NCBI GenBank assembly: GCA_018970425.1
Contig: JAGWWK010000002.1
Span: 72,068-136,067 of the forward strand
Direction of reading: 5' to 3'
Origin: Patescibacteria group bacterium
GTDB lineage: Bacteria; Patescibacteriota; Minisyncoccia; Phycocordibacterales; Phycocordibacteraceae
DNA length: 64,000 nt
Shown one piece after another: positions 2,762-27,182 of this stretch. The stretch's first letter is position 1, and each line of letters begins with the position of its first letter. The translations under genes and the position numbers were made by a program. The notes below the pieces were generated by a model. The model was given only the letters and a program-made list of their open reading frames with translations. It was not told the DNA's origin and ran no database searches.

Positions 2762-4771
<2,010 letters not shown>

Positions 4772-5260
4772 CTAGTAGGTCACGCGGATGGCGCGCTCCA
4801 GGCGCAGCGGGTCGCTTACCGTGCAGGTGTTGCGGCCGAATGATTCGATCACTGTCTGCTTCGGCTCTGAACGCGTGACGCGTACATCAGTGCACTGCTC
4901 CTTCGGCACCCCTCCGGTACGGACCGTAAATGTAGTCACATAGGTCGTCCCGGTAAGCGCGCGAGCAAGCGTAGATGTTGCTCGGCCGCAGGGTAGCTCC
5001 GCAACTTGTGACGATGTCGCAAACGCATCGAGCTGCGCATCGGCCCAGAGCGCACACTCAACACCAGAGTCCGCCGCGTAGAACGCGAACTGTGATTCCC
5101 TTCCTGAAAACGAAAGGGCAACTTCTTTAGTCGTGAAGTTATAGATTTCGTAGCCGATCGTTAAGAGAATACTTGCGATAAGCACTGACAGAAGAAGTGT
5201 GAATCCTCTCCGTGCACCATATCGTTTTCGATTCGTTTGAACGTTGTGCATCATAGCCAA
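4772..5260 (-). CDS. minor pilin/pseudopilin-like protein (prepilin-type N-terminus without Glu5)
   Basis: N-terminus RRGFTLLLSVLIASILL resembles a class III signal peptide but has Leu/Ser where the conserved Glu5 is expected. Overlaps the next pseudopilin gene by 10 nt. Confidence 0.5.
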   Translation of the reverse strand: MAMMHNVQTNRKRYGARRGFTLLLSVLIASILLTIGYEIYNFTTKEVALSFSGRESQFAFYAADSGVECALWADAQLDAFATSSQVAELPCGRATSTLARALTGTTYVTTFTVRTGGVPKEQCTDVRVTRSEPKQTVIESFGRNTCTVSDPLRLERAIRVTY

Positions 5261-5799
5261 TCGAGTATGCGCTCTTCAAGTATAAATTCTCGTGATACGC
5301 CCGATGATCGCCATGAGACGCGTACTGTAATAATCCGCTCATCCGGATTTTCTGCATCCGCAGTGATGCGTACGGTCCGAGTAAAGGGAGACTGATCACC
5401 GGTTGCGTGATTAAAGAGTTTACCGATTTGAGACACGCGAAGCGGTTCACACGCGGTCACGCAGGGAGCGTAGGTAAAGGTGGTGAAGTCTACGGTACAG
5501 TCTGTCTGCGTGCATGCCTCCTCAATGCCTTGTAGCCAGGGAGTACCGCGTAAATAGTTCTCATCGCGCACTGCTCGCACAAACTCTACACCCTCCTGCG
5601 CAAGGTAAAACGCAGTCACCTGATCTCGCGCATAGTATGCGCTTCGTAGCGACTGCTGCGCTATAGCGAATGGTCCAAGAAGCGCCATAAGCAGAACCGC
5701 GACCGCAACCAAAGTCTCAAGGAGCGTGAACGCGCGCACCTGCCCCGCTCTATGAAACGCGTACTGTTTCAAGGTGACTTGGTGTGGTGTAGATCTCAT
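5251..5799 (-). CDS. pseudopilin / minor type IV pilin
   Basis: N-terminal RAFTLLETLVAVAVLLMAL (prepilin peptidase-type motif, Ala at -1) followed by a hydrophobic helix. 4-nt overlap with the upstream gene. Confidence 0.6.
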   Translation of the reverse strand: MRSTPHQVTLKQYAFHRAGQVRAFTLLETLVAVAVLLMALLGPFAIAQQSLRSAYYARDQVTAFYLAQEGVEFVRAVRDENYLRGTPWLQGIEEACTQTDCTVDFTTFTYAPCVTACEPLRVSQIGKLFNHATGDQSPFTRTVRITADAENPDERIITVRVSWRSSGVSREFILEERILDWL

Positions 5800-6440
5800 A
5801 TATCAAGAAGCCTTTGCGTTACTGCTGACTGGACGGAGAATTGCGTAGCACCTCCCTGCACTTCGGCCGTTCCGCGGATAGAAATGAGTATGCGCGGCTG
5901 CGCGGTGTTGCCGCCAAGTAAGGGATCAGTACCTGTCACATAAAAGCGAAAATCAGTTATTTCAACCTCGGGCGCAGTGACCGCCACCCAGGCACCATTT
6001 TTTGTGCCGTTAGCGCATGTTTGCGCAAGACCTGAGCAGAGTGAACGCTCGATCTGGGTGCCATTTAAACGATACACGGTTTGGTCGTTCGGGTCATCTA
6101 TCGAACCACCCGATGACTCAAACGCGATGAGTAATCCGCCGTTTGGACAATCACGCGGGAATTGGAGAACGGTCGGTGACGGGGCAACCGCGCTGTCAGA
6201 ACAAAAGTAGGAAGAGCCGACGCGCGCGGAGCGAGATATCTGCTCGACCGCAGCATTCACATTGTTCATAACTGAGTTGATCGCCTGCGCTCGCGCATTG
6301 ACCGCAACCATACTGAGGAGCGCGCCAACGCCGACCATCATGACAATTGAGAAAATTGACACCGCAACCATGAGCTCAATAAGTGTGAAGCCGCGCGGGC
6401 TGTACGGCACCATCTGTTGTGATCGTAGTGAGTACTTCAT
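5796..6440 (-). CDS. pseudopilin / minor type IV pilin
   Basis: N-terminal PRGFTLIELMVAVSIFSIV class III signal peptide. 4-nt overlaps on both sides. Confidence 0.65.
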   Translation of the reverse strand: MKYSLRSQQMVPYSPRGFTLIELMVAVSIFSIVMMVGVGALLSMVAVNARAQAINSVMNNVNAAVEQISRSARVGSSYFCSDSAVAPSPTVLQFPRDCPNGGLLIAFESSGGSIDDPNDQTVYRLNGTQIERSLCSGLAQTCANGTKNGAWVAVTAPEVEITDFRFYVTGTDPLLGGNTAQPRILISIRGTAEVQGGATQFSVQSAVTQRLLDI

Positions 6441-20426: not shown

Positions 20427-20993
20427 CTATTGCCTGAGACCCCAGGGGCTTGCGTCGGGGAGGCGCTCGCGACGGGCGAGGTAAAACTGAGAGAATCCGA
20501 ATATCCCGAGCGCGATCACCATCGCGAAGCGGTAGTAGACCCACACATCATACGAGTACATGCGCCACACGAGCTCAGAGCCGAGTGCCGTCAGTATAAA
20601 AAACACACCCCAGCGCAGGGACAGCGTATGCCACCCCTTGTCCGTAATATGAAACATCGTCTGAAACAGCGGCTTCAAGGCGGGGGTGTCGCGTAGATAC
20701 CCTACCCCCATCGCAATACCAAAGAGTGCGTTGTACAGCCCAAATTCGAGCACGACCCAGTACGGGTCTCTTGTCGCGAGTGTCGCTGCGCCCGAGATGA
20801 GGACGAACACACTGGCGATGAGTGAAAAAAGCGGCACGCGGCCATCTCGCCAAAGAGAAAACGCTACCGCGCCCACAGTCGTAAGCATAAGAAGCACGAC
20901 GCCGACAAAAAAATTAAAAACGAGTGCTCCAACAAAAAAAGTGGTCACGGGTCCGAACTCAATAGCAAGCGATACTAGAAACGTTTTAGGCAC
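20427..20993 (-). CDS. YciB-like (intracellular septation protein A family) inner-membrane protein
   Basis: 188 aa, ~5 TM. Segment-by-segment resemblance to E. coli YciB (FFxxAL, WxVxxxxxYNALFG, W.VFFIL blocks). Confidence 0.55.
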   Translation of the reverse strand: MPKTFLVSLAIEFGPVTTFFVGALVFNFFVGVVLLMLTTVGAVAFSLWRDGRVPLFSLIASVFVLISGAATLATRDPYWVVLEFGLYNALFGIAMGVGYLRDTPALKPLFQTMFHITDKGWHTLSLRWGVFFILTALGSELVWRMYSYDVWVYYRFAMVIALGIFGFSQFYLARRERLPDASPWGLRQ

Positions 20994-21118
20994 TCACTAC
21001 ATAGTACATGAGCGGTACTGCGACTTGTGGAGAGATCTGATGCACATCTAACGCAGTGTCGGGCTCGCGCGGAGGGTGGTGCGTATCTACGCCTACGCGT
21101 ACAAGTGGTCACCTGCTC

Positions 21119-21265
21119 CTAGAGCGACGATATAATTTCTACGGCATCGTCTTCATCGATTCCTAACTCATCCACGAGTTCAAGTATCTCCTCGGCAGTC
21201 TGTTCATCGACGCCGTACTCTTCTGAAACCCGGAACACCTCTTCGTACGGCTCTGAAGGATTCAT
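21119..21265 (-). CDS. small acidic protein (48 aa), unannotated in ORF track
   Basis: ATG..TAG frame MNPSEPYEEVFRVSEEYGVDEQTAEEILELVDELGIDEDDAVEIISSL. Strongly acidic. Lies directly downstream of, and co-directional with, the DUF2779-like gene. Confidence 0.3.
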   Translation of the reverse strand: MNPSEPYEEVFRVSEEYGVDEQTAEEILELVDELGIDEDDAVEIISSL

Positions 21266-21332
21266 GCAGTACTTGTATCACGCGTTATATGTACTTACTA
21301 AAGAGATACAACTCCGCTGACACAGAGGAACG

Positions 21333-22865
21333 TTACGAAGTTAGGGTCGCAAGGTGCGAAAAGATCCGGTACATGGCTAGGGTGTCGAGGGCGCAGTACT
21401 TTTTGAGATTTTGAGCTATTTGGGCCTTATCTTCAGCCGTTGTAGTGGGGGCAAGCATGCGCCACCACTCGTTCGACGCTTGGCCACCCTCGTGGATCTC
21501 GAGGGCGTCGTAGGATAGGTCGGGGGCGAGGACGGGCAGGACCTTCTTGATAGACGTGCGGCCTCTAAAGCCTGGGTGTATGTAGTGCTGCTCGACAAAC
21601 AGCTTTTCGAGGTCGACCATGGCATTGTTGATGGTCGCGATAAACGGCGCAAGGAGAGGATGACGCTTAGCTATGTTTTCATTAATAAACTTCTTTTCAA
21701 ATGTTTCGTGCCAGACGATGACCGAGCCTGACGTGTAGGCTGCTCGGAGCGTAGCGACGCACGCCTCTGTCGGGTCTGAGAAGTCCTGGTGCAGGAACTC
21801 GACATGCTCGAGCGTACCGCCGGGCTCCTGCAGTATGTGGAGCGAGAACTGGAACGGAATAAACTTGTACGGACTGTAGCCGGTGAACGCGGGGATCGCG
21901 GGTGCGTACGCCTCGTAGTCGAAGAAGTGTAGCGGGTACTTGAGCGTCGCGAGGAAGTCGGCTATCGCTCCCCTGTCGATACTCGGCTTCTGTAGCTGGT
22001 GCGCCTGTACCTGGTTTGTCTGCTTTTCAGAGAGGTCGAAGGCGGCAGGGTCTACGTCGTCGATCGACAGGATGTTACTGTCCACGAGGTTCGTCAGTTT
22101 AGTTTTATGAATGCGTGATATGTCGTGCACCGAGTAGTCGGGTACGTGGGCGTTCGAGTACTGGAACGTCGTGCAGTGGTTACGACGCGATGAGTACACG
22201 CAGTCACAGCCGCCGCGCGGCTCGTCCGCGCGGAGCAAGTAGTCGCGCGCGCCTTCCATCTTAGGTTCTATCTCTGTCACTCGCTCGTTCGCTGCGTCGG
22301 TGACGTCGTCTATCTGGAACAGTTCTTCGATATTCAGGTCGCCCATGCGGACGTACTCCTTATTAAGGTGGACGAGGTAGGCGCGCCCGAGTGGGACTCG
22401 GGCGCGCCGCATGACTGAAATTTGAAACGCAATGTCTGTTACGTGGTCACGCTCCTTCTGGTCGATCTTTAAACTGTTCGTACCCTTTACCTCGTACAAG
22501 TCCCACAGGTTCGTGTCGGGGTTCCACTTCAGTACATCGTTACGCACGATAAACCCGTCAGCGATACACGTCGCTTGAAAAATAACAGGCATACGTTCCG
22601 CCATAAGGCGTGTTGTGTCTTCCACCGCATGTTCGCCCTTTGTTGAAACCTCTATCCCGCCGGGAAACAGGTTGCGCGCGTACGACTCGACCTCGTTACC
22701 CTGCTCCATAAGGTGGAGCTCGAACTCGGACGGGGTGAAAGTGCCTTTCAAGTCTGGCCGGTGGAGCTTCAGCCACGCGTCCTTAGGACACTGCATGCAG
22801 TGCTGGAACGTGGTTTTAGAGATGAGGAGGTCCATGACGAGGTAAGTATACCCTCCCCTATACAA
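21333..22865 (-). CDS. DUF2779-like protein: N-terminal Cas4/RecB-like PD-(D/E)xK nuclease region plus C-terminal RNase-H-like (DEDD-type) exonuclease-like region
   Basis: 510 aa. N-terminus ISKTTFQHCMQCPKDAWL (typical DUF2779/Cas4-like start with Cys). Later D..EVKG, CDC motifs. C-terminal FFDYEAYAPAIP resembles the exonuclease Exo I motif. Confidence 0.55.
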   Translation of the reverse strand: MYRGGYTYLVMDLLISKTTFQHCMQCPKDAWLKLHRPDLKGTFTPSEFELHLMEQGNEVESYARNLFPGGIEVSTKGEHAVEDTTRLMAERMPVIFQATCIADGFIVRNDVLKWNPDTNLWDLYEVKGTNSLKIDQKERDHVTDIAFQISVMRRARVPLGRAYLVHLNKEYVRMGDLNIEELFQIDDVTDAANERVTEIEPKMEGARDYLLRADEPRGGCDCVYSSRRNHCTTFQYSNAHVPDYSVHDISRIHKTKLTNLVDSNILSIDDVDPAAFDLSEKQTNQVQAHQLQKPSIDRGAIADFLATLKYPLHFFDYEAYAPAIPAFTGYSPYKFIPFQFSLHILQEPGGTLEHVEFLHQDFSDPTEACVATLRAAYTSGSVIVWHETFEKKFINENIAKRHPLLAPFIATINNAMVDLEKLFVEQHYIHPGFRGRTSIKKVLPVLAPDLSYDALEIHEGGQASNEWWRMLAPTTTAEDKAQIAQNLKKYCALDTLAMYRIFSHLATLTS

Positions 22866-22941: not shown

Positions 22942-23337
22942 CTACAGGTTGAGATATAGAATCGAGAGTTGGAGAACGGTAGCGAATGAGACCCAAAGAA
23001 GGTACGGTATGTTCACGTACGTCACCCACGGCGCATAGCGGAAAATAGCATAGAGTGCCCACACGAGTGTTGCGAGAACTAAGATAATGTCGAGAGACGC
23101 GAGCCACTGATTGCCGAGCGTAAACTGAAGCGGTGTAAACGCCACATTGAAAATAATGTTGAGCGCGAACGGTAGCAAGACGGTGGCCGGTAGTGTGCGC
23201 CGCACATACCGGTACGCAACGTAGCCGAATGAGATTGCAATAATAAGGTACAAGACCGACCACACTGGGCCAAAGATCCAATCAGGTGGCGCCCATGAGG
23301 GCTTGATCCACATTCCATACTGCATGTAGTTTTCCAT
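22942..23337 (-). CDS. tspO: TspO/MBR family tryptophan-rich sensory protein
   Basis: W-rich 5-TM protein, WIKPSWAPPDWIFGPVWSVLY signature. ORF track starts at a TTG at 23355; the ATG at 23337 was chosen. Confidence 0.75.
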   Translation of the reverse strand: MENYMQYGMWIKPSWAPPDWIFGPVWSVLYLIIAISFGYVAYRYVRRTLPATVLLPFALNIIFNVAFTPLQFTLGNQWLASLDIILVLATLVWALYAIFRYAPWVTYVNIPYLLWVSFATVLQLSILYLNL

Positions 23338-23410
23338 ATATAGATATACTAACAAACCGTATAAGTGACCGCTCCGAGCACCCGTGGTATTGTTTCAAAG
23401 ACCGACACTA

Positions 23411-23499
23411 GGAGAGGTGGCTGAGCGGTCGAAAGCGGCACAGTGCTAATGTGTTGTCCGGGTAAAACTGGACCGTGGGTTCGAATCCCACCCTCTCCG
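23411..23499 (+). tRNA. tRNA-Ser (anticodon GCT)
   Basis: Class II tRNA: acceptor GGAGAGG/CCTCTCC, 3-bp D-stem, anticodon stem GCACA/TGTGT with loop GTGCTAA, long variable arm, T-loop TTCGAAT. CCA not encoded. Confidence 0.8.
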
Positions 23500-23511
23500 C
23501 TGCAGAAAATA

Positions 23512-23575: not shown

Positions 23576-24250
23576 TTACTTCTGCAAAGCAAGGACGCGG
23601 ACCACCTCCTCAGCGAGTGGGGTTGCGGACGCGGGGTTCTGCCCAGTGATCAGACGACTATCTGACGCAACATGCGGCTGCCAAAGGTCCGCATGCTCAA
23701 ACAGTGCACCTCGCGCGCGCAGCTCGGACTCAAGGAGAAATGGCACCACTGTCTCAAGTTTCTTTGCCCGCTCTTCCGCGTCGGTGAACGATGTTACGCG
23801 TTTCCCCGCTACGAGGTAGGTACCATTAGAGAGCGCGACATGCACGAGTGCCGCAGGGCCGTGGCAGACCGCGCTCACTACCCCACCCTCCTCATATATA
23901 GTGCGTGCAATCTCCGCAAGGTGTGCGTTGTGCGGAAAGTCCCACATCGTTCCGTGGCCGCCCACGAAAAATACTGCTGCGTAACGTCGCGGGTCAACCT
24001 CTGCAAGGTTCAACGTAGCCGCCGCGCGTGTCGCATCACTGCTGTCTAGAAATTCGCGATTTATCGGATCCTCCGTATTCATGCCGTCTACAGGCGATGC
24101 TCCGCCAGCCGGGCTCGCAAAGTCAACTGCGTATCCTGCCTGTGTAAACACTCGCCACGGATGTGAGAGCTCGCTTAAAAAATATCCGGTCGCCTTTCCG
24201 GTGGTGCCGAGCTCGCCGTGGCTCGTCAGCACGAAGAGAATTTTTTTCAT
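23576..24250 (-). CDS. DJ-1/PfpI family protein (class I glutamine amidotransferase-like)
   Basis: 224 aa. Nucleophile elbow AVCHGP, flanking FVGGHG. Hsp31/glyoxalase III-like size. Confidence 0.8.
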   Translation of the reverse strand: MKKILFVLTSHGELGTTGKATGYFLSELSHPWRVFTQAGYAVDFASPAGGASPVDGMNTEDPINREFLDSSDATRAAATLNLAEVDPRRYAAVFFVGGHGTMWDFPHNAHLAEIARTIYEEGGVVSAVCHGPAALVHVALSNGTYLVAGKRVTSFTDAEERAKKLETVVPFLLESELRARGALFEHADLWQPHVASDSRLITGQNPASATPLAEEVVRVLALQK

Positions 24251-24273: not shown

Positions 24274-24933
24274 TTACGCGCCTGAAAGCTTGGCAGATGG
24301 GTCTAGACGCTCCCGTTCTATACCGATTGTTGCCGCAGTATTAATGAGGTGTGCCTCTGCGTCTTGAATCGCTTCGCGCGACGCATCGGGGGGCACTGTA
24401 CGCTCGAACTCTAGTGACTCGTGCGGTGGTGAGAGTTTCTCACCGTCTCGCTCTGTGTATGTGTCAACATGGACTGTCGTACCGTTTTCGTGCAGGTAGG
24501 TGCTGCGCGTCCGTGTCGTGGTTCGATCAACCGCGAGTGCCGCCTCGGCGCTCGCGAGTGCAAAAAGAAAGTCGCGTATAGCCTGCTCCGCATCGGAAAA
24601 CGAGTGCGCGACGCCCTCGTGTTCGAGGTGCGCCTTTGACACCGTGAGTCCGTCACGCGGTTGAAACTCTTTGACCGCCCACTCATAGACTACGCGCGAT
24701 CCCTGCCGTCGCTCACGCACACGTGCCATGCCGTCAAAGCCCGGCAGTACTACCGCGAATCGCGTGTCGAGCAGGATTTCCGTGCCCTGACTTTCCGCGA
24801 CCTGCTGTAATCGCTCCTCACAGGCGGTACGCTCCTCGGCACCATTGAGTCTTGCTCGCGTCTCCACTTCCCGAACGCTCACATACTCACGAGTATTTCT
24901 CTCTTGTCTAAGCATCGAGACCTCGAGATTCAT
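24274..24933 (-). CDS. hypothetical protein
   Basis: Only long ORF covering an otherwise ~700-nt gap. ORF track extends it to 25119, overlapping recG, so an internal ATG (24933 or 24915) is more plausible. No family recognised; Arg/Glu-rich. Confidence 0.35.
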   Translation of the reverse strand: MNLEVSMLRQERNTREYVSVREVETRARLNGAEERTACEERLQQVAESQGTEILLDTRFAVVLPGFDGMARVRERRQGSRVVYEWAVKEFQPRDGLTVSKAHLEHEGVAHSFSDAEQAIRDFLFALASAEAALAVDRTTTRTRSTYLHENGTTVHVDTYTERDGEKLSPPHESLEFERTVPPDASREAIQDAEAHLINTAATIGIERERLDPSAKLSGA

Positions 24934-24960
24934 CCCGGCCACTATATACTGAGTCCGTAC

Positions 24961-27108
24961 ATGGAGCCACAGTCCCCGATTGACGACCTTGTCCGCTTGT
25001 CTACTGCGCATCGCGCCGCGCTTGAGCGCCTTGGCATTGCAAATATCCGCGACCTCCTCTACCACATACCCCACCGCTACGAGTCGGCCGCTGATATACG
25101 TGAGGTCGCGCAACTCCACACACCGGGCGAGGTGACGCTATACGGGCAGTTCACCGCGCTTGAAATGAAACGCTCGTTCAAAACCAGAGTACCCATGGCC
25201 GAGGGAACTTTTGACGACGGCACGGGTACGGTGCGCGTTGTATGGTTTCATCAGCCATACCTTGCAAAAATGGTTCCCACGAACGAACTTGTGCGATTGC
25301 GTGGCCCGCTCTCGATTTCCAAGGGACGGAAGTACATTGCAAACCCGGTAGTCGAGCGCGCGGCTGGACTTCCGGTACTACAAGACACGGAGGGTATGGT
25401 GGCAGATGGTGGTATGCAGCCGGTGTACCCCGAGACCGCAGGCATTACCTCACTCTGGTTCTACCACGCGGTAAAGCGCGCACTCGAGGCGCGCGTCCAC
25501 GAATCGCTTGTAGACCTAGTGCCACGAGAGATTCTTGAGAAGTACCACCTACCCACGCTACAGACCGCGCTAGTCTGGGCACACCAACCCAAACATCAGA
25601 AAGACGCGGACGCCGCAAAGAAGCGTTTTGCGTTCGAGGAAGTGTTTATGATCCAACTCGCGCGCGCTCTCGAGCGTGAAAAAAATAAAGAAAAGCGCGC
25701 GCTCCCCGTTGATGCCGACGAAGCGCGGGTGCACGCATTTATTGACACCTTTCCCTTCGCACCAACGGGTGGGCAACGACGCGCGATTGCCGACATTCTT
25801 GCAAACTTCCTTGAGCCGTACCCTATGGCGCGCCTCCTCGAGGGCGACGTCGGCAGTGGCAAGACCGCGGTCGCCGCGGCGACCGCGTACGCAGTCGTGA
25901 CATCGCGTCCGGTGCCAGGAAAAAACTTTGGTAACCTGCAGGTCGCGTACATGTGCCCGACTGAAATACTCGCCAAGCAGCACTTCTCAACCTTTACGTC
26001 GTTTTTTAAAAAGTACCCTATACAAATCGGACTCATCACCTCGTCAGGCTGTTACAAGTTTCCGTCGAAGGTGCACCCCGATAAGCCGACTGAAATATCT
26101 CGCACACAGCTTTTAAAGTGGGTGGCTAATGGAGAGGTACCAATCCTCATTGGTACGCATGCTCTTATTCAAAAAGCGGTGAAGTTTAAGCACCTCGCAT
26201 ACGTCATTATCGACGAGCAACACCGCTTTGGTACCGCGCAGCGACAGGCCCTCACACTCAAAGACGGCGTGGCACCGCACCTCCTCTCCATGACCGCGAC
26301 CCCCATTCCGCGCACACTCGCCTTGACGCTCTACGGCGACCTCGACCTCACCGTACTCGACGAGCTCCCTGCTGGGCGTAAGCCTATAGATACGAAGATA
26401 GTGACACCACACGAGAGATCCGGCGCGTATACAAAAGTACGCGAACTCTTGGCTCAAGGTCGACAGGCGTACGTCATTTGTCCGCGTATCGACGAGCCGG
26501 ATCCGACAAAACAGATGGCACTCCAGGCGCGCTCGGTCGCAGCAGAATTAAAAAATCTGCACAAGCTGTTCCCCGAATTCGTGATCGAAAAAATGCACAG
26601 CAAGATGAGTCCGAAGGATAAGGAGGACGTCATGGCCGCGTTTGAACAAGGAAAGATACACATACTCGTCTCGACGTCGGTGGTCGAGGTGGGCGTCAAC
26701 GTCCCGAACGCGACGATTATTTTAATCGAAGGCGCAGAGCGCTTCGGCTTGGCCCAGCTCCACCAGCTACGCGGACGCGTGATGCGCTCGACGCACCAGC
26801 CGTATTGCTTCCTCATGGTAGACAAAGCGAGCTCCTTAGGGAACGCGCGGCTCAAGGCGATACTGAAAGCAAAAAACGGATTCGAGCTCGCTGAGCATGA
26901 CCTCGCGATACGCGGCGCGGGAGAACTCTATGGGCGCAGGCAGTGGGGCATCTCTGACATCGGTATGGAAGCCTTAAAAAATATAAAGCTTGTCGAGGCT
27001 GCTCGGAGCGAAGCATTCGCCCTCGTGTCTACAGACGCTGACCTACGCACCCTGCCCGACCTAAAAAAACAAGCCCTTCATACACTGAAGGACCTGCATT
27101 TTGAGTAG
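24961..27108 (+). CDS. recG: ATP-dependent DNA helicase RecG
   Basis: Wedge/OB N-domain, helicase motifs GDVGSGKT, DEQHRFG, MTATPIPRT, QLRGRVMRS. ORF opens at 24904, but the RecG-like N-terminus starts at the ATG at 24961. Confidence 0.9.
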   Translation: MEPQSPIDDLVRLSTAHRAALERLGIANIRDLLYHIPHRYESAADIREVAQLHTPGEVTLYGQFTALEMKRSFKTRVPMAEGTFDDGTGTVRVVWFHQPYLAKMVPTNELVRLRGPLSISKGRKYIANPVVERAAGLPVLQDTEGMVADGGMQPVYPETAGITSLWFYHAVKRALEARVHESLVDLVPREILEKYHLPTLQTALVWAHQPKHQKDADAAKKRFAFEEVFMIQLARALEREKNKEKRALPVDADEARVHAFIDTFPFAPTGGQRRAIADILANFLEPYPMARLLEGDVGSGKTAVAAATAYAVVTSRPVPGKNFGNLQVAYMCPTEILAKQHFSTFTSFFKKYPIQIGLITSSGCYKFPSKVHPDKPTEISRTQLLKWVANGEVPILIGTHALIQKAVKFKHLAYVIIDEQHRFGTAQRQALTLKDGVAPHLLSMTATPIPRTLALTLYGDLDLTVLDELPAGRKPIDTKIVTPHERSGAYTKVRELLAQGRQAYVICPRIDEPDPTKQMALQARSVAAELKNLHKLFPEFVIEKMHSKMSPKDKEDVMAAFEQGKIHILVSTSVVEVGVNVPNATIILIEGAERFGLAQLHQLRGRVMRSTHQPYCFLMVDKASSLGNARLKAILKAKNGFELAEHDLAIRGAGELYGRRQWGISDIGMEALKNIKLVEAARSEAFALVSTDADLRTLPDLKKQALHTLKDLHFE

Positions 27109-27182
27109 TGGGCGTGCCTGGACTCGAACCAGGGACCGCGGAGGTATAAGCTCCGTGCTCTAACCAACTGAGCTACACGCCC
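27109..27182 (-). tRNA. tRNA-Ile (anticodon TAT, reads AUA)
   Basis: Reverse complement GGGCGTG-TA-GCTC-AGTTGGTTA-GAGC-A-CGGAG-CTTATAC-CTCCG-CGGTC-CCTGG-TTCGAGT-CCAGG-CACGCCC-A. All four stems are canonical. Anticodon loop C-T-TAT-A-C. Confidence 0.8.

Follow-up and report, generated by a model that had tools for sequence, protein, structure and literature searches.

A tiny, highly acidic protein family encoded behind DNA-targeting gene cassettes, including a predicted dual-nuclease DUF2779 gene

Among the small acidic proteins that keep nucleases in check, the colicin DNase immunity (Im) proteins and barstar, of about 85–90 amino acids, are each specific for one cognate nuclease. The anti-restriction DNA mimics Ocr (gp0.3 of phage T7) and ArdA, products of phage or mobile-element genes, are dimers of about 117 to 166 amino acids (PMC3439906, PMC2731889). 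On the nuclease side, the DUF2779 family was placed by Majorek et al. in 2014 in the 3′–5′ exonuclease clade of the RNase H-like superfamily (as family F.17), with the Cas4-like DUF83 co-occurring (PMC3985635), and a 2026 analysis described its member MMSYN1_0389 of JCVI-syn3.0 as a fusion of a Cas4-like and a DEDD(h to y) domain, proposing an 'immunity connection' for the family (PMC13621843). Here we discuss a locus that touches on both subjects: within a 64-kb window of Patescibacteria DNA – the whole stretch that was analysed – positions 21,119–22,865 carry a DUF2779-family gene (21333..22835) followed by a hyperacidic small gene of 48 codons (21119..21265), both on the minus strand.

Both open reading frames (ORFs) lie where the first-pass annotation had placed them, as is evident from the ORF list and the sequence, and the small one is, as claimed, co-directional with the large gene, downstream of it (by 67 nt) and extremely acidic: its product, MNPSEPYEEVFRVSEEYGVDEQTAEEILELVDELGIDEDDAVEIISSL, has 17 Asp or Glu residues against a single Lys or Arg, giving a net charge of −16. 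It was not unannotated, as had been thought, since NCBI already holds the same protein as MBU6310635.1, 'hypothetical protein KGO06_01730'. The protein belongs to a family whose members mostly have 40–60 amino acids. A profile built from four copies found 273 relatives at an E-value of 0.01 or better, and an exhaustive HMMER search, run over 1.84 billion cluster representatives, returned 321 clusters at 50% identity (E-value 0.001 or better), nearly all of 40–70 amino acids. The commonest form has 43 residues (MDDEVFEKAKEEDLSKDEAEELQELVDETGLDVDEAxELWQEL); the median net charge of the family is −15.5, with about 40% Asp and Glu. Differences among seven gap-free copies of the gene fall on codon positions 1, 2 and 3 in the ratio 179:72:478, synonymous change has reached saturation for 18 of the 21 pairs, and the proportion of nonsynonymous differences (pN) is 0.10–0.19; the copies at loci L085 and L088 are 9 nt apart, all of them synonymous. 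DNA similarity between genomic contexts begins and ends at the borders of the small ORF, which is a genuine protein-coding gene under strong purifying selection.

AlphaFold2 predicts a three-helix bundle for the small protein (residues 5–17, 21–34 and 38–47; predicted local distance difference test (pLDDT) score 88), which amounts to about 2.5 copies of a 17-residue helix-turn unit; among known systems, the three-helix bundles of UBA domains and of the EF-Ts N-terminus come closest. Neither the window protein nor two relatives belong to any family in Pfam, NCBIfam, PADLOC or PHROG. No member of the family was found in 2.9 million IMG/VR viral contigs with two different query alignments, none in GenBank phages or PLSDB plasmids by tblastn, and a Foldseek viral search gave no match with an E-value below 0.8. 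A metagenome scan with the family alignment yielded two confirmed loci only, the tblastn confirmation having been made with the divergent window sequence. No paper describing the family was found in the literature, and neither the family nor its consistent position after restriction and nuclease cassettes seems to have been described.

Some names that the small protein might attract were rejected. Acyl carrier protein – about 75–80 amino acids and four helices (78 positions in the NCBIfam model), with a DSL motif whose Ser carries the phosphopantetheine – gives 15.9 bits against an NCBIfam cutoff of 106 and a PHROG E-value of 0.008; the small protein has 48 amino acids, and its matching stretch, LGIDEDDA, lacks the Ser. 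The names 'DsbA family' and 'CdvB', given by JGI to some family members, are backed by no supporting domain (Pfam DSBA, E-value 0.23). The acidic module also occurs in variant settings (P0285, P0339, P0326 and P0380 are listed): several proteins of 105–161 amino acids have N-terminal membrane helices before it, and in P0285 a cold-shock-like N-terminus precedes some eight tandem 17-residue units (EILKIAKKYDLDTxKAY) that are basic, not acidic.

The genes of this family recur in one kind of place. Throughout roughly 1 Mb of fetched loci they occur in one copy per locus, always on the same strand as nuclease or restriction genes and downstream of them. We compared 15 distinct contexts in candidate-phyla bacteria (Patescibacteria) – a small sample, made up of the window, loci L002 and L058 and others picked for long contigs and not for DUF2779 – and found DNA-targeting genes co-directionally upstream in all 15, with DUF2779 involved in six. 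Upstream of the small gene are HsdR in L082 (2 nt away); HsdS, HsdR and YgjP in L089–92 (1 nt in L089); a ResIII protein and an N6_N4 methylase in L085–87; a methylase (Mod), an AAA ATPase and a Res endonuclease in L105 (1 nt); a D12 methylase, AlwI and two unknown genes in L095; a D12 methylase, an HNH protein and two unknown genes in L102; a GmrSD/Schlafen protein and a PDDEXK_1/Cas4-like nuclease in L093; and a DUF2326 protein in L111, DUF2326 being, as we take it, a domain of ABC-3C conflict-system ATPases. DUF2779 itself is found with a ResIII/SNF2 helicase in L088 (1 nt), with a 1065-residue and a 238-residue protein in L081, and with two unknown genes and an HD protein in L094. At least eight unrelated gene families occupy the upstream position, and the gap between the upstream stop and the small gene, 1–2 nt in L082, L088, L089 and L105, is 34 nt or less in 13 of the 15 contexts. 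An identical 43-residue protein, P0172, is encoded behind a Mod methylase in one genome and behind DUF2779 in another, which argues for an action that does not depend on the partner. Downstream genes vary: they include IspA, S49, a serine recombinase, HTH_24, DUF3276 and unknowns.

Two observations concern these flanks. In four contexts, the small gene is closely followed by a Peptidase_S49/NfeD-type protease gene (L058, 7677–8555; L111, 1383–2249; L102, 5519–6364; L081, 4682–5602 on the minus strand), the four proteases being 38–64% mutually identical; the 64-kb window has no Peptidase_S49 gene. Genes at 3277–3993 in L081 and at 5165–5791 in L105 encode homologous secreted proteins (43% identity) that share a 'DFNNDGLDDV' motif; one of these genes precedes the small gene and the other follows it, which indicates local rearrangement around it.

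Seen from the DUF2779 side, the association is much looser. Among 80 genome loci that encode a DUF2779 relative, three have the small gene: 19 nt past the stop of a gene whose product is 74% identical to that of the window (L002), 15 nt past the stop of one at 42% identity (L058) and 750 nt past the stop, with one gene between, of one at 43% identity (L060). This is far above the chance expectation, roughly estimated at less than 0.1, given that, elsewhere in the fetched DNA, the small family turns up only once in about 1 Mb. The first-pass annotation had suggested a nuclease–regulator module and had looked to orthologous neighbourhoods for its conservation. That the small ORF is a conserved, selected gene recurring beside nucleases is borne out by its codon-position substitutions, its relatives and its neighbourhoods; the notion of a dedicated pair with DUF2779 is not, with only those three of 80 loci having it, and the relatives at 86%, 74% (L001) and 73% identity lack the small gene within 4–6 kb and share no flanking synteny with the window.

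Like Ocr and ArdA, the small protein is extremely negatively charged and linked to restriction enzymes of several types; unlike them, it has 43–48 residues, is chromosomal and is encoded in cis with restriction genes. It shows no homology to a known DNA-mimic family in Pfam, NCBIfam, PHROG or PADLOC, and, in IMG/VR, GenBank phages and PLSDB, none of the phage or mobile-element encoding that characterises Ocr and ArdA. Like the colicin Im proteins and barstar, it is small, acidic, helical and encoded immediately downstream of a nuclease gene, whereas its family is promiscuous as to the upstream enzyme; the pairing with one toxin family expected of a type II toxin–antitoxin or immunity system was not found.

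We tentatively favour, while stopping short of conviction, the reading that the small protein is a generic modulator, possibly a DNA mimic, of the DNA-cleaving enzymes whose genes precede its own. It would be co-expressed – presumably by co-transcription – with whichever nuclease cassette lies upstream. As these partners have unrelated folds, it would need to recognise a feature common to them, the obvious candidate being a DNA-binding surface with positive charge. By occupying such surfaces, according to the leading idea, it would act as a miniature, DNA-mimic-like competitive inhibitor, a 'safety catch' that binds and inhibits; an adaptor role would be an alternative mode, as the predicted fold is UBA-like. 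It is charge, size and neighbourhood that suggest the DNA-mimic or inhibitor role. The broader proposition that such proteins are a general built-in brake, by DNA mimicry or as adaptors, on unrelated DNA-cleaving defence systems in Patescibacteria – type I, II and III restriction, Cas4-like nucleases and DUF2779 – strikes us as unlikely.

Several observations weigh against a generic modulator. As many as 77 of the 80 DUF2779 genes, and presumably most restriction-modification systems too, do without the small gene, which must therefore be dispensable for these enzymes. At 43–48 residues, the protein is smaller than any DNA mimic known to us. Two pairs of related genomes (L085/L088 and L058/L111) have different cassettes ahead of the small gene, which keeps the same flank on its downstream side. 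The genes that follow it are often close by too, so that the tight gaps may be no more than a sign of compact genomes. In the window, the two genes are parted by a 67-nt spacer (21266..21332, minus strand) with a weak terminator-like hairpin at 21312–21327. Finally, the 15 contexts, few and partly chosen for long contigs, come without a matched background rate of defence genes. As to expression signals in the window, the junction listing gives no evident Shine–Dalgarno sequence before the small ORF and the promoter scan called no sigma-70-like promoter in the region; a TTGTAT-N16-TATAAC string ahead of the small ORF, spotted by eye, fails the criteria of that scan.

The chief rival reading, possible if on the whole doubtful, is that the small gene has nothing to do with the nucleases and is simply the first conserved gene flanking a slot in which defence or restriction cassettes, DUF2779 included, are repeatedly inserted or swapped; in one variant of this idea, the conserved 130-nt sequence of the small gene may itself serve as a recombination handle. 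The loci L085 and L088 speak for such a slot, as they share the small ORF and the DNA downstream at 89% identity, beginning exactly at the ATG, behind different cassettes (ResIII and Mod in L085, a helicase and DUF2779 in L088). So do L058 and L111, in which the small ORF is followed by Peptidase_S49 genes with 64% identical products and preceded by AAA_13 and DUF2779 in the one and the DUF2326 protein in the other, together with the recurrence of Peptidase_S49 downstream in four contexts and the flanks of DUF2779, which are non-syntenic even at 86% identity and rich in restriction-modification genes. Yet an 'empty' slot, in which a housekeeping gene would precede the small gene, is seen in none of the 15 contexts, the downstream genes differ in deeper comparisons, and DNA similarity between contexts is limited to the small ORF; the gene is, moreover, always oriented as the cassette is, with gaps of 1–2 nt in four contexts, and its extreme, conserved acidity calls for a functional explanation. 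Even as a mere hotspot flank, the small gene would mark a recurrent insertion site of defence cassettes and so help in finding new defence genes. A quite different thought, and a distinctly improbable one, is that the protein is a passenger on mobile restriction or nuclease cassettes and, much as ArdA and Ocr serve mobile elements and phages, would for a time block the restriction enzymes already present in a new host while the cassette becomes established. Its acidity, like that of known anti-restriction DNA mimics, its travelling with varied restriction cassettes and the presence in some loci of a nearby serine recombinase, HTH_17 protein or phage-integrase gene would suit this role; its absence from the 2.9 million viral contigs, GenBank phages and PLSDB plasmids, the lack of similarity to the ArdA and Ocr families in Pfam or PHROGs and its place at the distal end of operons, not in an early or leading region, do not.

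The model implied by the first-pass annotation, a dedicated immunity protein or antitoxin for DUF2779, is very hard to maintain. While the small gene is adjacent to and co-directional with DUF2779 in the window, L002 and L058, and within four genes of it in L081, L088 and L094, 77 of 80 DUF2779 loci lack it, nine of the 15 contexts have no DUF2779 at all, and subfamilies of the small protein do not track the type of upstream gene – the identical protein behind two different genes being a case in point. That the small ORF codes for no protein, having arisen by chance or being conserved as a DNA or RNA element, could be argued from its shortness, from the absence of an obvious ribosome-binding site in the window and from the fact that ORFs of this length are common by chance; the third-position-dominated substitutions, saturated synonymous sites and low nonsynonymous divergence effectively refute it, and the conserved start and stop positions, the end of similarity at the ORF borders, hundreds of homologues called as genes in independent assemblies and the lack of an Rfam match in the region leave it practically no credibility.

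Should the proposition of a general brake be true, no smaller DNA-mimic-type regulator would be known, nor any earlier one encoded in cis by defence cassettes. On the generic-modulator reading, the protein would differ from known acidic nuclease inhibitors and DNA mimics in being at once tiny, chromosomal, in cis and unselective as to its partners. Were it to bind and restrain the enzymes, it would reveal a way in which cells or mobile cassettes curb dangerous nucleases, and might offer a tiny broad-spectrum nuclease inhibitor. In any event, the small gene is a concrete candidate, open to test, for a regulator acting generically on restriction and defence nucleases, from a poorly understood radiation that relies heavily on restriction.

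The DUF2779 gene itself had been read as encoding 510 amino acids. This is the longest ORF (21333..22865, minus strand), which opens with a TTG; the likely coding sequence is 21333..22835, 500 codons from an ATG at 22835, because homologues begin at MDLLISK and the NCBI protein identical to that of the window (100%; MBU6310636.1, 'DUF2779 domain-containing protein [Patescibacteria group bacterium]') has 500 residues. The GGGGAGGG stretch precedes this start. The suspected DUF2779 domain is confirmed by Pfam PF11074, matched over the full model (positions 1–126) with an E-value of 7e-33 and 114 bits against a cutoff of 23.3; so do all 27 relatives in the family alignment (52–86% identity; residue numbers follow the 500-residue form) match it. 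There are more than 2000 homologues, for the most part of about 500 residues and from metagenome bins of Patescibacteria. Searches of PDB sequences with the protein and with the family profile gave nothing meaningful. A match to the ABC-3C 'MC5' domain in the linker was discarded as weak (16.9 bits against a cutoff of 25; three of the 27 members).

The idea of two nuclease-like modules in one polypeptide was right, as judged by the Pfam match, the invariant residues and the AlphaFold2 model (pLDDT 91.7), and the motifs on which it had been founded – ISKTTFQHCMQCPKDAWL, D..EVK and FFDYEAYAP – are present and fall on invariant columns of catalytic-type residues and cysteines among the 27 sequences. 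The N-terminal domain (residues ~1–230; 22146..22835, minus strand) is a predicted Cas4/RecB-like PD-(D/E)xK nuclease: it has the fold and the D…ExK motif, with D100, E115-x-K117 and Q138 invariant, and this half of the protein matches (values in brackets) Cas4–Cas1 (11.7), Dna2 (11.2), the Cas4 protein SSO0001 (11.0) and Exo5 (10.0), as well as MGME1 and AdnAB. It also has the four cysteines, one N-terminal (C16) and three C-terminal (C210, C212 and C221), of a possible iron–sulphur cluster; the latter three are invariant and C16 is kept in at least 90% of the sequences. A helical linker follows (residues ~231–300; 21936..22145, minus strand; boundaries, from the predicted secondary structure, approximate), and then a C-terminal domain (residues ~301–500; 21336..21935, minus strand) which contains the Pfam DUF2779 match and has the RNase H-like exonuclease fold and a DEDDy-type 3′–5′ exonuclease signature, with four conserved acidic residues in Exo I, II and III and a Tyr before the last Asp. 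Invariant here are D306-x-E308 (of FFDYEAYAP), E380 in WHETFE and Y480-x3-D484; the acidic Exo II residue was assigned to E380, and not to the likewise invariant D408, from the form and spacing of the motif and not from superposition.

This dual-nuclease architecture is not new, having been described computationally in 2014 and 2026. The window protein shares with the PF11074 family, MMSYN1_0389 and the NCBIfam 'UU173 family' the same Pfam domain and the same combination of a Cas4/DUF83-like PD-(D/E)xK nuclease with a DEDD exonuclease, and, as in the MMSYN1_0389 family, Tyr replaces His and the D…ExK and acidic residues are equally conserved. It differs in keeping, along with its Patescibacteria relatives, all four cysteines, of which MMSYN1_0389 retains only two (PMC13621843), and in matching the NCBIfam UU173 model (650 positions, against its 500 residues) at the C-terminus only, far below the cutoff. 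The analysis thus confirms an earlier prediction and adds the full four-cysteine set in the Patescibacteria branch; no biochemical characterisation of any DUF2779 member was found in the literature.

Compared with Cas4 and the iron-staple nucleases (SSO0001, 4IC1; Cas4–Cas1, 7MI4; Dna2, Exo5 and AddB/AdnAB), the window protein is fused to an exonuclease, remains below the Pfam Cas_Cas4 (PF01930) threshold, as it does for PDDEXK_1, and spaces its cysteines as C-x-C-x8-C, unlike the C-x2-C-x5-C of canonical Cas4. The Cas4 link is weak at the sequence level, with only two of the 27 relatives reaching an E-value of 0.064 or better in the Pfam scan; one JGI record labels a homologue (P0115) Cas4. 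As the 64-kb window has no CRISPR-like array of spaced direct repeats and the immediate neighbours scanned include no cas genes, the protein would at best be a 'solo' Cas4-like protein. From the DnaQ-like DEDDh and DEDDy exonucleases – MrfB (8UN9), Pol III epsilon and the proofreading domains of family-B polymerases – it is set apart by an Exo II residue that is apparently Glu (E380) and by the lack of a sequence-level match in the PDB.

Sequence and modelled structure together suggest that the DUF2779 protein is probably a metal-dependent enzyme for processing DNA ends that joins two activities. By analogy with its relatives, the Cas4-like domain, probably stabilised by an iron–sulphur cluster, would act as a 5′–3′ or endo-acting PD-(D/E)xK nuclease and the DEDDy domain as a 3′–5′ exonuclease, so that ends of both polarities would be processed. 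Its cellular role might lie in repair, in the breakdown of foreign or imported DNA or in defence; we lean towards conflict or foreign-DNA processing because DUF2779 neighbourhoods are variable and restriction-rich. DUF2779 is often immediately preceded by genes of helicase or restriction type: among 74 upstream neighbours, Pfam domains (which may overlap within a protein) include ResIII (7), AAA_11/12 (5), SNF2 (4), AAA_13 (2) and methylases (2), and such helicase and restriction genes fit the 'immunity connection' proposed for the family (PMC13621843). The same 74 neighbours (alignment A5) also include five DsbA/thioredoxin-like, three FolD and three sigma-70 proteins; taken together, these counts place DUF2779 in housekeeping surroundings in some lineages and in helicase/restriction surroundings in others.

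The two relatives at 86% and 73% identity illustrate the restriction-rich setting. In the former, the nearest relative compared (L112, 5630–9502), genes for a D12 methylase and an RE_AlwI endonuclease lie directly downstream of DUF2779; a homologous cassette precedes the small gene in L095 (methylases 63% identical). In the latter (L113, 1–3395), a type IIG methylase and RE_Alw26IDE, an Alw26I-type endonuclease, are encoded upstream of DUF2779, and the position behind it that the small gene holds in the window is taken by a different acidic ORF of 78 codons (5567–5803, plus strand; net charge −11), unrelated to the small family by hidden Markov model comparison.

In the window, the small gene is followed on the same strand by a gene for an IspA-family membrane protein (20427..20993, minus strand), and a gene for an HlyD-like protein also lies downstream; for a 45-codon ORF at 20975..21112 there is no evidence of its being a gene. 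Upstream of DUF2779 come a TspO/MBR-like gene (22942–23355, minus strand) and a DJ-1/PfpI gene (23576–24250, minus strand), with a tRNA-Ser(GCT) gene (23411–23500, plus strand) between them, about 0.6 kb upstream of DUF2779. Transfer RNA genes are common integration sites; no integrase was seen near this one. Rfam finds only tRNAs in the 15–30 kb part of the window. Further upstream, a 281-codon ORF (24274–25119, minus strand) with no Pfam match overlaps, by about 215 nt and on the opposite strand, the longest reading of an ORF identified by eye as RecG (24904..27108, plus strand), so that one of the two starts is probably miscalled. The stop of this recG-like ORF is abutted by a tRNA-Ile gene (27108–27182, minus strand) with the anticodon TAT (UAU), which is uncommon in bacteria, where AUA is usually read by a tRNA with a lysidine-modified CAU anticodon.

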